Positions 1-57,000 of a stretch of DNA of 64,000 nt are shown piece after piece (the first letter of the stretch is position 1; the number at the start of each line of letters is the position of its first letter). The notes beneath the pieces were generated by a model. It did not search any database, was not told where the DNA came from, and saw only the letters and a list, made by a program, of their open reading frames with translations. The stretch is from Candidatus Heimdallarchaeum endolithica (GTDB taxonomy: Archaea > Asgardarchaeota > Heimdallarchaeia > Heimdallarchaeales > Heimdallarchaeaceae). Position numbers and translations under genes: made by a program. The stretch is from the NCBI GenBank assembly GCA_021513715.1, contig CP084167.1:1184001-1248000 (forward strand), written 5' to 3'.

Positions 1-273
1 AAGAACTAAAGCTGGCGCGCCAGTCCAGATAAAAAATTTCCTTTTTCCTAACTTCATATTTGAAGGGAGAATATCAGAAATGTAACCAAAAAGAAAACCA
101 GAAAAAGCGATAACTATTTTCCCTACAGCATTTCCAATAGAATTCCAAGTTTGATTCAGAGCAAAGTGATTGTTATATATCCAAACTGTTGCCAAAGAAC
201 TCATATTCATAAAAATAGATGTTCCAAATCTACAAGCACCATATGAAACTTTTTGCTTTTTTGTAAGGTACAT
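1..273 (-). CDS. MFS transporter, GPH/MelB-like (5' part; runs off window edge)
   Basis: Not in the ORF track. Manual translation from the ATG at 273 gives MYLTKKQKVSYGACRFG...FLFGYISDILPSNMKLGKRKFFIWTGAP, with the GPH-type G-x2-SD...G-K/R-R-K loop motif. Confidence 0.8.
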   Translation of the reverse strand, partial: MYLTKKQKVSYGACRFGTSIFMNMSSLATVWIYNNHFALNQTWNSIGNAVGKIVIAFSGFLFGYISDILPSNMKLGKRKFFIWTGAPALVL

Positions 274-363
274 GTTCTCTTAATCCAGTCTTCACAACAT
301 TTGCTATGTTTATTGACTGGTTGGGGAGAGTCTTGAAGAAATTACGTAAAATTTCAACTCATG
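271..363 (+). mobile_element. Partial copy (right end) of the non-coding element at 53052-53434
   Basis: 93 bp that align without gaps to 53342-53434 with 8 mismatches; bounded by CATG at both ends. Confidence 0.85.
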
Positions 364-51340: not shown

Positions 51341-52739
51341 AGACAGAGAACGAGCGCAATTTAGAAGATTCTTTAAAAAGAGATTTGAAGAAGGAGAACA
51401 TATTCTAGAACTATATACAAGAGATTTCGCTAAAGTCCCGAATTTAGTAAAAAAACTAGTTATTGCTAAACCAGAAGCAGTAATATTAGTAGAAACAGTG
51501 GAAGACATAAAAAAAGCATTTGAAATAGCAAATAAAACAAAAATACCTCTTATTCCTCGCGCAGGAGCTACTTCAGGACATGGAGGAACACTAGTTTACA
51601 AAAAAGGAATAATAGTCGATCTAACAAAACTTAACAGAATAATAGATATAGAGCTGATGGATCAATCAGTAACAGTAGAACCTGCAGTAACTTTTCACGA
51701 CCTGGAAAAAGCCCTAACAATGCAAAGTTTAGCTCTTTGCTCCTATCCATCAAGTATTTACTCAGGAACAATAGGAGGGTGGATAGCACAAGGAGGAGAA
51801 GGTATAGGGAGTTTGAAATATGGAAGCATTATTGACCTATTATTAGGATTAGAAGTTGTCTTGCCAGATGGAAGTGTAAAATACTATACTGAGAAAGAAG
51901 ATTTTGAAATGTTTGTAGGAGCACAAGGAACAACAGGAATAATAACCAAGGTTAAACTAAAATTTAGGTTTGACATACCCTTAAAACATATTGCTTTTAC
52001 ATTTGATAATTTCTCAGACATGTTAAAAGGGTTATCAAGATGTAGAGAAGTAGAACCATTTTCAGTTTGGTTCCTAAACAAACATAAAGTAGATTATTTA
52101 AATAAAACACTAGGATATATTTTACCTTCACGTCATCTAGTCATTGTTTCAAAAGAGATAAGCTATGATGAAGAAGAAAAAGAGTTCAGAGAAAAAATAT
52201 ACAAGATAGTACGAGAAGAAAAAGGACAACTAATTTCAGATTATTATATTCAAGGAATATGGAAAGCAAGATTCAAAATCTTTTCAATATTGAAAGAAAT
52301 GGAAAACTATATTCTAGGGGAAGTAAGCATACCATTAGATTACGGGGCAGAGTATATAGAGAGTCTTCCAAAGAAAATAGATAAAAAAATATTGATAGAA
52401 GGAATAATGGTTTCTTTTTCTACAGTATCAATAATCTTGAATTTGGTGCTAAAAACAGACCAATCAAAAATTAAACAATATAAAAAATTCTTGCAAGTCT
52501 ATAAATGGATATTAAAAGCAATAAAAATAGGAGGTTTTCCCTCAGCAACAGGGTTATGGTTCGGAGGATATTACCACACTATTTATGGAAAAGAAAGAGA
52601 AGAGAAATTGTTGAAATTTAAGAAAGAAGTAGATAAAAACAACATTTGCAACCCAGATAAAGTATGGTCCCCTAAAGTAAAACAATTACCCTTAATTTCT
52701 TTGAAAACAGCGATAAAAATTATAGGTGAATTATTTTGA
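51330..52739 (+). CDS. FAD-binding oxidoreductase, GlcD/D-lactate dehydrogenase family
   Basis: PRAGATS..GG, TIGG, GAQGTTGIIT and K..VD.NNI.NP motifs. The frame is open back to 51315 and conserved N-terminal sequence precedes the GTG at 51498, so the start is placed tentatively at ATA 51330 or ATT 51336. Confidence 0.85.
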   Translation: MKIKDRERAQFRRFFKKRFEEGEHILELYTRDFAKVPNLVKKLVIAKPEAVILVETVEDIKKAFEIANKTKIPLIPRAGATSGHGGTLVYKKGIIVDLTKLNRIIDIELMDQSVTVEPAVTFHDLEKALTMQSLALCSYPSSIYSGTIGGWIAQGGEGIGSLKYGSIIDLLLGLEVVLPDGSVKYYTEKEDFEMFVGAQGTTGIITKVKLKFRFDIPLKHIAFTFDNFSDMLKGLSRCREVEPFSVWFLNKHKVDYLNKTLGYILPSRHLVIVSKEISYDEEEKEFREKIYKIVREEKGQLISDYYIQGIWKARFKIFSILKEMENYILGEVSIPLDYGAEYIESLPKKIDKKILIEGIMVSFSTVSIILNLVLKTDQSKIKQYKKFLQVYKWILKAIKIGGFPSATGLWFGGYYHTIYGKEREEKLLKFKKEVDKNNICNPDKVWSPKVKQLPLISLKTAIKIIGELF

Positions 52740-53051
52740 AAATAGAAGAATACTTTTTTCCTGAAGATTTACTGTATGATATAAGTGAACCAGGACACAT
52801 TTGGATAAGGAAAATAGAAGAAAAAAAAATAGAGATAGGAATAGACGATTATGCAGCTAAACGTGCAGGAGAAATAGAGTTTATTAGAACAATGAAAGTA
52901 GGAAAACAAATTACAAAAGGGGGAACAATAGGAACTTACGAAACAGGAAAATGGATAGGACAAATAAAAAGTCCCGTATCAGGAACATTAGTAGAAAAAA
53001 ATGAACTACTAAAAAATCAACCAGAATTGGTGAATAAAGCGCCCTATAGCG

Positions 53052-53434
53052 CATGAGATACTTTTTTACGTAATAAACTAAATTTTTAGTTTGTGGAGTT
53101 ATCAGACCAATAACAACCTGAAACACATTTGCAAAAATAAAGAATACATACACGATATTAGGGAGTGTCACAACTTTTCAGCTATCTTTATATATTTAAT
53201 TCTCATTTATCTAATGTCTTGAGCTATATGCTTAAAGACGTAGGTTTCACTCCTACGACACCCGGTCTTCCCTGTGGGAGTTATGAGTGCCCGGGATAAG
53301 GAGATGAACCCCTTAGAGAACTTAATTAAGACTGTGTCTTTCATGTTCTCTTAAGCCAGTCTTCACAACTTTCGCTAAGTTTGTTGATTGGTTGGGGAGA
53401 GTCCTGAAGAAATTAAGTAAAATTTCAACTCATG
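53052..53434 (+). mobile_element. Non-autonomous element with CATG core and imperfect sub-terminal inverted repeats (IS110/IS1111-like candidate)
   Basis: CATG at both junctions. Left end CATGAGatacttTTTTACgTAAT versus reverse-complemented right end CATGAGttgaaaTTTTACtTAAT. No transposase. Confidence 0.75.
53220..53400 (+). ncRNA. Structured ncRNA inside the element (bridge/seek-RNA-like candidate)
   Basis: TATA box TTTATATA at 53187-53194. Four stems: 53239-53257, 53261-53295, 53315-53351 and 53355-53392; the last three have internal loops. G-U pairs favour the + strand, and one compensatory change is seen versus the 271-363 copy. Confidence 0.6.
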
Positions 53435-53581
53435 GATAGTGAGAATAGAAGGAATAAAAATAGAAGAAGAACTAAAAGAAAATGAATTAATAGTAGAAGC
53501 AGGAGAAAAATTGAAAGAACACATATTATTTAGAATCTCAAAAGAATAAAGAAGAAAAAGCAAATTCCAGGAAAAGAAAAT

Positions 53582-54708: not shown

Positions 54709-57000
54709 ATGGGGTTAATAGAAACAAGGATAAACTCAAACATTTTTTCTAAAAAACATGGTGTTAGAAAAAAAATGGCTTATACTCACTTGATAGTAGC
54801 TATTTTGCTTGTACTAGTAATCAGTAATACTACATTAGGACAAAGTACAGATAGTAATAACATGCAACCTTACTCAAATAAGCCTAAAAATGCATTAGAA
54901 AGCAATGTTCTTTGGACTTATAGCACTGGAGGAAATATTCGTTCTTCTTCTGCTATAGGGGACATTGATGGAGATGGAAAAATAGAAGTTCTTGTGGGAA
55001 GTTTCGATAAAAATCTTTATGCTATTAACGGAGAAGATGGAACTGTTCTATGGAAATATGAAACAGGAGGAAAAATCTACTCTTCTCCAGCTTTAGGAGA
55101 CATTGACGGGGATGGAAAAATAGAAGTTCTTCTGGGAAGTTACGATAAAAATCTTTATGCTATTAACGGAGAAGATGGAACTGTTCTATGGAAATATGAA
55201 ACAGGAGGAAAAATCTACTCTTCTCCAGCTTTAGGAGACATTGACGGGGATGGAAAAATAGAAGTTCTTGTGGGAAGTTTCGATAAAAATCTTTATGCTA
55301 TTAACGGAGAAGATGGAACTGTTCTATGGAAATGTGAAACAGGAGGAAAAATCTACTCTTCTCCAGCTTTAGGAGACATTGACGGGGATGGAAAAATAGA
55401 AGTTCTTGTGGGAAGTTACTACCACAATTTTTATGCTATTAACGGAGAAGATGGAACTGTTCTATGGAAATATGAAAGAAAAAACGAAATTTTCAATTCT
55501 CCAGCTTTGGCAGATATAGATGGAGATGGAAAAAAAGAAATAGTGATGAGTATTGGAAATATATTTTATGCCCTTAACGGAGAAGATGGAACTGTTCTAT
55601 GGGAATTTAAAATGATTCTGAATTTTTACTCTTCTCCAGCTTTTGGGGACATAAATGGGGATGGAAAAATAGAAGTAATTATTGGAAACTCGAATACTGT
55701 AGTTTATGCGCTCAATGGAGAGGATGGAACAATTCTGTGGATGTATAAAACAAAAGGAAATGTTCAATCTTCTCCAGCTTTAGCAGACATGGATGGAGAT
55801 GGAAAAATAGAAGTGATTATAGGAAGTATTGACAAAAGAATTCATGTTATAAATGGAGAGGATGGAACAGGACTATGGACATATAAGACAGAAGGAAAAA
55901 TCTACTCTTCTCCAGCTTTAGGAGACATGGATGGAGATGGAAAAATAGAAGTGATTATAGGAAGTTACGATAACAACCTCTACACTTTTGACTTTGATAA
56001 TGCAAGTGCGTATGTTTATTGGCAAGGAATGGGAGGAACAAGCAATTTTGATAGAACGGCCAATCTAGGTTATATAGATGAAGACCATGATGGATTAACG
56101 GATGAGGAAGAAAAAGAAGTAACAGGAACAAATAAAACAAAAGCAGATACGGATGAGGATGGATTGCCAGATGGATGGGAAGTAAGATATGGACTAAATG
56201 CAACAGGAGAAGATAACGCGAATGAAGACATAGATGAGGACGGACTGACGAATATTGAAGAATATGAATATAATACAAATCCGATAAAAGTAGACACAGA
56301 TGAAGATGGACTGAACGACTATGAAGAAATAAATACATATGAAACAGACCCGATAAAAGTAGACACAGATGAAGATGGACTGAACGACTATGAAGAAATA
56401 AATACATATGAAACAGACCCAAATAAAAAGGACACAGATGGAGATAGATATAATGATTATAAAGAAATAGAAGCAGGAACAGACCCAAAGAATAAAGAAG
56501 ATAAACCAAAGACAAGAATATACTGGGGAGGAGCAATACTATTAGTAGCTGTAGCATTGATAGTGATAAAAAACAGAAAGAAATTAAGAAAGAAAGTGAA
56601 AAAATACGTAGAAAAAATAGAAGCACCGAATTTAAAAGAAGCAATAAAAACAAGAAAAACAGGATTCAAAAATTATAAAGAATATGAAGAAGCAAAGAAA
56701 AAAGGATACAAAAACTATACAGAATGGCAAAAATTCCAAAAAAGACAAGAAATACTAAAAGATCTAATAAGCAGAACAAAAAGAATAGCAATAAAAGATT
56801 TCATGACACTACTAAATTTCAAAAATAGGGAAGAACTGTATAAGTGGATACTAACGCTACCAGAAGGAATAGCAGTAATAGATGGAGAATACGTAGTGTT
56901 CGCAGCAGAAAGCGAGACGAAAGAAGAAATAGATGAAGCGATAAACACATTACTAGATCAGTTTTCAGAACTAGAGCGCTCAAAACAAGGTAAAATATAA
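54709..57000 (+). CDS. Surface receptor-like protein: FG-GAP/PQQ-like 8-repeat beta-propeller, TSP3-like Ca-binding repeats, TM helix, cytoplasmic domain
   Basis: Signal peptide (likely start ATG 54775); eight roughly 46-aa SSPALGDIDGDGKIEV repeats; DTDEDGL repeats; TM helix; C-terminal domain of about 140 aa. Confidence 0.88.
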   Translation: MGLIETRINSNIFSKKHGVRKKMAYTHLIVAILLVLVISNTTLGQSTDSNNMQPYSNKPKNALESNVLWTYSTGGNIRSSSAIGDIDGDGKIEVLVGSFDKNLYAINGEDGTVLWKYETGGKIYSSPALGDIDGDGKIEVLLGSYDKNLYAINGEDGTVLWKYETGGKIYSSPALGDIDGDGKIEVLVGSFDKNLYAINGEDGTVLWKCETGGKIYSSPALGDIDGDGKIEVLVGSYYHNFYAINGEDGTVLWKYERKNEIFNSPALADIDGDGKKEIVMSIGNIFYALNGEDGTVLWEFKMILNFYSSPAFGDINGDGKIEVIIGNSNTVVYALNGEDGTILWMYKTKGNVQSSPALADMDGDGKIEVIIGSIDKRIHVINGEDGTGLWTYKTEGKIYSSPALGDMDGDGKIEVIIGSYDNNLYTFDFDNASAYVYWQGMGGTSNFDRTANLGYIDEDHDGLTDEEEKEVTGTNKTKADTDEDGLPDGWEVRYGLNATGEDNANEDIDEDGLTNIEEYEYNTNPIKVDTDEDGLNDYEEINTYETDPIKVDTDEDGLNDYEEINTYETDPNKKDTDGDRYNDYKEIEAGTDPKNKEDKPKTRIYWGGAILLVAVALIVIKNRKKLRKKVKKYVEKIEAPNLKEAIKTRKTGFKNYKEYEEAKKKGYKNYTEWQKFQKRQEILKDLISRTKRIAIKDFMTLLNFKNREELYKWILTLPEGIAVIDGEYVVFAAESETKEEIDEAINTLLDQFSELERSKQGKI
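54945..55500 (+). repeat. Intragenic 138-bp tandem repeats (near-identical units)
   Basis: TCTTCTCCAGCTTTAGGAGACATTGACGGGGATGG recurs at 55081, 55219 and 55357. Confidence 0.9.
56281..56418 (+). repeat. Intragenic 69-bp tandem duplication
   Basis: PIKVDTDEDGLNDYEEINTYETD x2, identical at the DNA level. Confidence 0.9.

Follow-up and report, generated by a model that had tools for sequence, protein, structure and literature searches.

What is the 379-bp insertion that interrupts a glycine cleavage H-like (GCV_H) gene in Candidatus Heimdallarchaeum endolithica, and what does the structured RNA that it appears to encode do for it? The insertion lies at 53052-53434 of the stretch of DNA analysed here (the window: 64,000 nucleotides of contig CP084167.1, equal to positions 1184001-1248000 of a single-contig genome of 3.33 Mb with a G+C content of 30.8%). 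An interpretation made earlier from the letters of the window alone (the sequence-only reading) took it for a miniature inverted-repeat transposable element (MITE) of the IS110/IS1111 type, in which the loops of a bridge RNA would pair with the target CATGGA and with the donor junction, and which a DEDD recombinase would move in trans. Bridge RNAs of IS110 and IS1111 elements are structured non-coding RNAs in the end of a mobile element, and these elements have a short fixed core at both junctions; the insertion in the window likewise combines a structured RNA at its end with a short fixed core on either side. Part of that proposal stands, in that the element is non-autonomous, present in many copies and equipped with a TATA box and an RNA of guide type. 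The bridge RNA itself does not. Instead, the element is probably a protein-less MITE that bears an omega RNA, takes its guide from its own right flank and borrows TnpB in trans.

The insertion is clear from an empty site. In the window the junctions read TATAGCG-CATG-AGATAC on the left and TTTCAACT-CATG-GATAGTG on the right, and the interrupted open reading frame (ORF) stops at 53056. In a closed genome of the same genus (G001) the orthologous gene reads TATAGTGCATGGATAGTG, with one CATG at the insertion point, and its ORF is intact, encoding a protein of 144 amino acids that matches Pfam GCV_H (PF01597) at an E-value of 2.5e-28. Because this gene is whole and holds a single CATG, the precise 379-bp insertion at CATG that the sequence-only reading had described is confirmed. 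CATG is the core at this site and not at all others. A second copy (L014) is flanked by CATG on the left and CATT on the right, and the ortholog in G001 has a single CATT, which makes CAT the target. The G that follows the left CAT is thus part of the element, and the base that follows the right CAT is part of the target. For another copy (L011), a search of G001 for the empty site found no ortholog. The coordinates that we give (Table 1) follow the reading in which the element was inserted 3' of CAT, and an equivalent delimitation is 53052-53430 followed by a duplication of CAT. A duplicated CAT (or AT), or a terminal CAT carried by an element that inserts 3' of a target CAT, would both fit the sequence.

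Searches with BLAST find 16 full-length copies of the element in the 3.33-Mb genome, 86-100% identical, together with about nine fragments; there are 11 matches in G001 and further copies of about 380 bp on metagenome contigs. The only ORFs in the element are of 43-45 amino acids and unconserved, and no transposase is encoded, as the earlier reading had noted. That reading had placed the inverted repeats some way in from the ends. They are in fact terminal, starting at CATG and running for 23 bp with CATG included, and are imperfect (CATGAGATACTTTTTTACGTAAT against CATGAGTTGAAATTTTACGTAAT, the reverse complement of the right end). Small, non-coding, bounded by terminal inverted repeats (TIRs), dispersed in many copies and sharing its ends with a longer insertion sequence (IS) described below, the element has the features of a MITE. 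Its closest pairs of copies are 99.7% identical, against 96.8% for the closest pair of that IS, which indicates that the MITE is the most recently active member of the group. The most diverged full-length copy (86% identical) lies outside the window, at genome 925508-925884 (L016/L063). On one metagenome contig (Ga0164318_10030686, L133, positions 1778-2155) we see a rearranged copy in which positions 231-382 abut positions 1-237 of the opposite strand, an arrangement that suggests inversion of part of the element.

A further class of copies consists of the right end only, about 92 bp long. Apart from the one near the start of the window, such copies lie at genome 1375194-1375285 (100% identical to the copy in the GCV_H gene), 2088844-2088936 and 1833485-1833568, and at two loci in G001 (L049 and L051). 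All of them start at or beside an internal TTCAT-G, a site that resembles the true right end, CTCAT-N, and cleavage or excision at an alternative CAT site may have produced them. A search for a transposase adjoining the partial copies found none.

Which longer element could the MITE derive from or move with? When genome contigs and metagenome contigs were scanned by pattern for a longer parent that has the right end of the MITE, only further 380-bp copies turned up. A fuzzy search for terminal repeats, on the other hand, finds facing pairs of TIRs about 1.87 kb apart. They delimit an IS present in about 14 copies, which fall into two subfamilies with about 80% identity between them. The ends of this IS read CATG-6 nt-TTTTTTACGTAA (or TTTTTGCG), its flanks are CATG, and the motif CATG-6 nt-TTTTTTACGTAA is also the left-end motif of the MITE; the ends are true inverted repeats, in which 10-bp units stand in tandem. 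It is the only longer element with MITE-like TIRs and CAT(G) junctions. The sequence-only reading had foreseen a longer element with the same ends and a DEDD recombinase, and had listed a parent with a TnpA/TnpB pair among the outcomes that would speak against it; what we find comes close to the latter, with TnpB as the only protein and no tnpA. Counting MITE and IS together, CAT precedes the left end at 33 of 36 junctions and forms the right end at all of them, the base after the right-end CAT is a purine at 34 (G at 24, A at 10), and the base before the left CAT is C at 17. Insertion thus takes place at CAT with a purine after it, and CATG is not strictly required. The ends of four other multi-copy IS families of this genome are unrelated to those of the MITE. 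The IS load made up by these families is heavy, with an IS5-like DDE element in 34 copies, an IS481-like rve element in 25 (with long target duplications), an IS6-like element in 12 and a second DDE_Tnp_1 family in 6.

The single ORF of the 1.87-kb IS, of 483-527 amino acids, encodes a divergent TnpB. It matches the Pfam Cas12f1-like TNB domain (PF07282) at an E-value of 1.7e-10 and the NCBIfam guided_TnpB family (NF040570) at 1.1e-22, the latter under that family's curated cut-off, and its nearest solved chain in the PDB is a TnpB (E 9e-5). PF07282 has 25 matches in the genome, and at least eight uninterrupted ORFs of 483-527 amino acids belong to the lineage with the MITE's ends; a potential cognate TnpB is present in the cell. 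Of the 83 genomes of the class, 19 carry this lineage. At the 19 relatives' loci that we inspected, only the TnpB gene was seen between the candidate ends, other ORFs not having been checked for systematically, and several of these loci show clear inverted repeats and CAT(G) junctions. The lineage (for example the resident ORF at L030, 325-1776) has VGYP at the usual position of the RuvC-II glutamate, and D241, E390, E399 and D433 are invariant among eight members from several genera; it may belong to a catalytically rearranged branch of the types described previously (PMC10691335). A second TnpB-only lineage, of 505 amino acids and 55% identical, is found at genome 709211-710722 and 1464799-1466310 (L033), with ends CATG-AAAAAATTTTTTGTA...TTGTACAAAAAATTAACTCATG and the same scaffold layout as the MITE. 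On this comparison of ends and junctions, the MITE belongs to the mobility group of a TIR-bearing, TnpB-only IS family of Heimdallarchaeum-type Asgard archaea.

The link between MITE and TnpB extends to the structured right half. At the level of plain sequence, an nhmmer search with the MITE profile matches the resident IS in the terminal repeats and nowhere else, so homology had to be shown through a covariance model and through relatives from other genera. A covariance model built on the 3' regions of 15 resident IS copies aligns with the MITE module from end to end, on the plus strand, and finishes at the right terminus; the module is the top match in most loci (E 6e-5 to 0.06), and the left repeat, the better-matching of the two, alone scores about 5 bits lower. 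The regions 3' of tnpB in 19 relatives of other genera share ordered blocks with the MITE (Table 1), and the AACTCAT terminus is present in every sequence of the alignment. When a profile hidden Markov model made solely from these 19 regions was run with nhmmer on the whole 3.3-Mb genome, it matched 18 MITE copies and nothing else (E 4e-6 to 1e-2), including the window copy at 53282-53407 (E 2.6e-5); the resident IS was not matched by this profile. Searches of Rfam, at gathering thresholds and with E-values up to 10, gave nothing relevant. Taken together, these comparisons show homology between the structured right half of the MITE and the tnpB 3' regions of related genera.

A TnpB guide RNA would be expected to show a particular fold next to its guide. 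The sequence-only reading had taken TTATGAGT (53281-53288) for a donor loop that can pair with the predicted end-to-end junction ACTCATGA. The complementarity of this loop to the terminal ACTCAT (53428-53433) is real and conserved. Its pairing partner is the 3' end of the RNA itself: RNAalifold on 26 copies pairs AUGAGU with the terminal ACUCAU, and a scripted count over 32 sequences (MITE copies plus 16 relatives, six copies of the resident IS and one resident copy of the second lineage) finds 191 of 192 cells paired (99.5%), against 17-43% in controls in which the strands were slid. In the resident IS both sides have switched, to AUGAUU and AAUCAU (G-C to U-A), two single changes preserve wobble pairs, and the second resident lineage has one mismatch (AUGCGU with ACUCAU). 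In the omega RNA of ISDra2, a pseudoknot joins positions -2 to -6, just 5' of the guide, with -102 to -106, and according to its authors this pseudoknot is a conserved element of all Cas12 guide RNAs (PMC10097598). We conclude from the covarying pairs and their placement that AUGAGU with ACUCAU corresponds to the guide-adjacent pseudoknot typical of TnpB and Cas12 guide RNAs. The other loop invoked for a bridge RNA, TTCATG, had been proposed to read the target CATGGA, which it can match at two sites. Among copies it never varies although the sequence that follows CATG does, and the homologous RNAs lack it, which is not the behaviour of a programmable guide.

The rest of the fold is in keeping with this. 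The layout of helix P1, which encloses the pseudoknot strand, recurs in relatives of other genera and also in the resident IS (CGUGG...UUUAUGAUU...CCACG), and between the lineages its pairs have changed in a compensatory manner, from CCCGG with CCGGG in the MITE to CGUGG with CCACG in the resident IS. In several predicted helices, all copies or nearly all have G-U pairs, which would be A-C mismatches on the opposite strand, and the fold is thus specific to the plus strand; compared with shuffled sequences, the plus strand folds somewhat better (z -2.8) than the minus strand (z -2.1). In the last long stem, the right-end-only copy at 271-363 carries one compensatory change (AACTT with AAGTT against AACAT with ATGTT), a covariation that the earlier reading had already picked out. 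The internal TATA box and the stems downstream of it are likewise present as described there. Every copy aligned at that point except one keeps the TTTATAT core, the neighbouring positions vary, and TTTATATA would be the archaeal promoter of the RNA. Copies from two species differ pairwise by 0.062 on average in the RNA module and by 0.131 in the left part of the element, the segment with the first two hairpins has the lowest diversity of the whole element (0.037), and the pseudoknot and the G-U and compensatory stems are retained in copies as low as 76% identity. Our best reading is that the right 220 nt of the MITE encode an omega RNA with a TATA box of its own upstream.

Table 1. Interrupted GCV_H gene, inserted MITE and predicted RNA features (window positions)
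Feature	Position	Strand	Basis or remark
GCV_H (glycine cleavage H-like) gene, 5' part	52736..53054	+	last triplet is the target CAT (53052-53054)
Inserted element, 379 bp, from G to CAT (read as inserted 3' of CAT)	53055..53433	+	copies and two empty sites in G001 (CATG, CATT)
GCV_H gene, 3' part; first ~16-20 nt the putative guide segment of a read-through RNA	53434..53549	+	guide role predicted
Left terminal inverted repeat CATGAGATACTTTTTTACGTAAT	53052..53074	+	18/23 pairing with the right end
Right terminal inverted repeat ATTAAGTAAAATTTCAACTCATG	53412..53434	+	pairs with the left end
TATA-box-like TTTATATA	53188..53195	+	~25 nt before the first conserved hairpin
Hairpins H1 (53216-53239) and H2 (53240-53256)	53216..53256	+	RNAalifold, 26 copies
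Helix P1, CCCGG (53261-53265) with CCGGG (53291-53295)	53261..53295	+	small hairpin (53267-53280) and loop UUAUGAGUG lie within it
Pseudoknot 5' strand AUGAGU	53283-53288	+	within the P1 loop
Omega-RNA-like scaffold body	53296..53427	+	blocks common to 19 tnpB 3' regions of other genera
Parts of the scaffold body: GAGAUGAACCCC block; ACUGUGU-hairpin stem (53316-53350); variable-tip stem (53356-53392); GGUUGGGGAGAGUCCUGAAG block		+	
Hairpin GAAAUU with AAUUUC, inside the right TIR	scaffold body	+	
Pseudoknot 3' strand ACUCAU	53428..53433	+	final bases of the element, abutting the flank that would be the guide
Shared blocks in order: AAUGAGUGCCC; GAGAUGAAYCC; hairpin with ACUGUGU-type loop; GGUUGGGnAGAGUCCUGAA; terminal AACUCAU			alignment of relatives with the MITE
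Internal CATG, start of the 92-bp right-end-only copies	53342..53345	+	copy comparison
Right-end-only copy, 93 bp, 91% identical to 53342-53434	271..363	+	copy comparison

What could an RNA of this kind do for an element without a protein? The comparison shows TIRs and CAT-specific junctions in common with the TnpB IS, homology to tnpB 3' regions, the guide-adjacent pseudoknot and a scaffold that ends exactly at the right boundary of the element. We propose that transcription begins near 53218 and proceeds past the right end, such that in the RNA of each copy the scaffold would stop at the boundary and that copy's own right flank would follow as the 3' tail; the role of the flank as a guide is taken from the way in which TnpB omega RNAs work (PMC10097598, PMC10055086). 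TnpB made by the resident IS copies would load this RNA in trans, and the loaded protein could then cut the empty site (CAT plus right flank), either after excision or on an insert-free sister chromosome, with homologous repair restoring or copying the MITE. Insertion beside CAT-purine would be carried out by the same transposase that moves the TnpB IS.

The closest precedent is provided by the PATE-like derivatives of IS200/IS605 elements (Meers et al. 2023, PMC10055086), which are also short, multi-copy and protein-less, share their ends with TnpB elements, have a scaffold that abuts the right end and must be used by a TnpB encoded elsewhere; PATEs are stated there to encode, in many cases, omega RNAs on which TnpB has to act in trans. 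Our MITE differs in being bounded by 23-bp TIRs where PATE ends are asymmetric subterminal hairpins, in inserting at CAT-purine, in having its own archaeal TATA box and in residing in an Asgard host. PATEs are moreover mobilised by Y1 transposases, whereas no Y1 TnpA partner was found for the MITE: there is none in G001, and the host genome has one that is disrupted. With the TnpB and omega RNA of ISDra2 (PMC10097598) the MITE and its putative partner have in common a right-end scaffold with the guide taken from the flank, a pseudoknot that joins the bases just 5' of the guide to a region more than 100 nt upstream, and a protein with a RuvC fold and zinc ribbon. The two RNAs have no sequence similarity, the RNA of the MITE sits on an element without tnpB, and the candidate partner TnpB (480-530 amino acids) is very divergent and lacks the canonical RuvC-II glutamate. 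Use of an omega RNA in trans is thus already known in principle, and what is new here are the TIR ends, the TATA box, the Asgard host and the lack of a known transposase partner. The paper that describes the genomes of these organisms mentions neither TnpB nor MITEs (PMC8813620).

Several points weigh against an omega-RNA MITE that is served by the resident TnpB. The scaffold of the MITE is nearer in sequence to the omega regions of other genera than to those of the resident IS, and the model of the resident IS scores the MITE weakly, such that acceptance of the MITE RNA by the resident TnpB is a supposition. Expression of the RNA, its start site and its read-through into the flank are deduced, not observed. 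Covariation among the MITE copies is thin, amounting in RNAalifold to four pairs, mostly due to one sequence. The right end's own CAT adjoins the guide, and to avoid targeting itself the element would need a longer adjacent motif, of which none could be defined. Finally, with VGYP in place of the canonical RuvC-II glutamate, nuclease activity of this TnpB lineage would not be assured.

The alternative that survives best is that the MITE is an inert relic, namely what deletion left of an old TnpB IS, with the 3' non-coding region retained by accident; it would make and use no RNA and depend on its TIRs alone. We consider this unlikely. It would account for the dissimilarity between the MITE's scaffold and that of the resident IS and for the persistence of 92-bp right-end copies that have no promoter; the presence of the RNA is deduced from sequence, and since most copies are young, conservation reflects recency in part. 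Against it, the module is about half as diverse as the remainder of the element among copies of two species. The near-constant TTTATAT, the maintenance of the pseudoknot and of the G-U and compensatory stems down to 76% identity, and the retention of blocks conserved across genera speak likewise for an RNA that has been kept.

Any account of the MITE has to ask which enzyme inserts it, and the search for one returned little. Neither PF01548 (DEDD_Tnp_IS110) nor PF02371 (Transposase_20) has a match in the 3.33-Mb genome, with controls positive in 6 of 14 reference genomes, and PF01548 has none in G001, which also carries the element. IS630-type DDE_3 gave no match. The host genome has one Y1 tnpA, in a different IS of IS605 type with a 408-aa tnpB and hairpin ends of its own, and the oldest MITE copy (genome 925508-925884) has split its start codon (in ATGCCAT, directly before the insertion) from the rest of the gene; Y1 tnpA was found neither in G001 nor in 25 genomes of genus g4, 13 of which have the TnpB lineage. 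Two single-copy serine recombinase genes, of 249-277 amino acids, have an N-terminal catalytic domain and a layout unlike that of IS607; they might act as helpers, but nothing links them to the element. Cas1 is encoded at three loci, each among co-directional ORFs in operon-like clusters, which we read as putative CRISPR adaptation modules, and the one locus that was scanned for the TIR motif (L081) has none. No DDE, IS607-type serine recombinase or Cas1 gene is linked to the ends of MITE or IS.

A more radical idea is that the TnpB lineage and the omega-RNA-only MITE form a self-contained mobility system, in which TnpB together with its RNA would be the transposase, or else some type of enzyme that has so far not been connected with TnpB. 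We give this a slim chance, because TIR elements that carry only a RuvC-rearranged TnpB and an RNA, or the RNA alone, insert beside CAT, and because transposition has been recent in two closed genomes without Y1, IS607-type, IS630-type or DEDD partners. The nearest comparison is with the TnpB lineages that have symmetric ends, meaning the DDE-associated branches and the aCas1-associated groups of Asgard archaea (Altae-Tran et al. 2023, PMC10691335), and with the TIR transposons that carry Fanzor. There too no more than 250 bp separate the TnpB gene from one end of a TIR element, and copies with TnpB alone have common ends. In contrast to those systems, no DDE, serine recombinase or Cas1 gene accompanies the elements described here, and the junction triplet is CAT rather than TA.

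It is also conceivable that the stems act as DNA and not as RNA, serving as recognition hairpins in single-stranded DNA for an HUH-type or other strand-specific transposase, with ATGAGT pairing with the cleavage site ACTCAT in the manner of IS608. The asymmetric insertion beside a fixed CAT, with a right end that is also CAT, does resemble the adjacent and encoded motifs of IS200/IS605 elements, and several right-end-only copies begin exactly at the internal TTCAT-G, as they would at an alternative cleavage site. We nevertheless hold this to be very improbable. The genome's sole Y1 tnpA is the gene whose start codon the oldest MITE copy split off, and the wider search for Y1 tnpA gave no substitute; the DNA guide of IS608 adjoins the end hairpin and is not some 140 nt distant from it; the ends, being true inverted repeats that contain tandem 10-bp units, are typical of double-strand binding sites; and the module is homologous to omega-RNA regions of tnpB. 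The IS110/IS1111 bridge RNA with which the sequence-only reading began is almost certainly wrong, since beyond its short complementarities and the identical short core on both sides it is contradicted by the failure to find a DEDD recombinase, by parent-like elements that encode TnpB, by an RNA module homologous to tnpB 3' regions, by a supposed donor loop that covaries with the RNA's own 3' end, by a supposed target loop that is unconserved while the flanks past CAT-purine vary, by inverted repeats that are terminal and by the lack of any Rfam match.

Outside the element and its host gene, the window also encodes, at 54709-57000, a protein of 763 amino acids with about ten tandem repeats of about 40 amino acids (YAINGEDGTVLWKYETGGKIYSSPALGDIDGDGKIEV), after which come D-T-D-E-D-G-L-rich repeats and, at the C-terminus, a membrane anchor.

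If the MITE is indeed an omega-RNA-bearing element, as we think probable, it would be a guide RNA freed from its nuclease gene that has gained a promoter of its own and now outnumbers its TnpB-carrying relatives in a Heimdall-type archaeon, and it would offer a clean natural case of parasitism on TnpB at the level of RNA. The compact scaffold of about 220 nt, with its defined pseudoknot, could serve as a test bed for an uncharacterised, RuvC-rearranged TnpB of archaea. The finding also sharpens the question of what moves TIR-bearing, TnpB-only elements when the genome has no known partner transposase, and it bears on how nucleases of the Fanzor type came into inverted-repeat transposons. Should the TnpB lineage and the MITE prove to be a self-contained mobility system, they would be a prokaryotic counterpart of the Fanzor-carrying TIR transposons, near the root of the eukaryotes.

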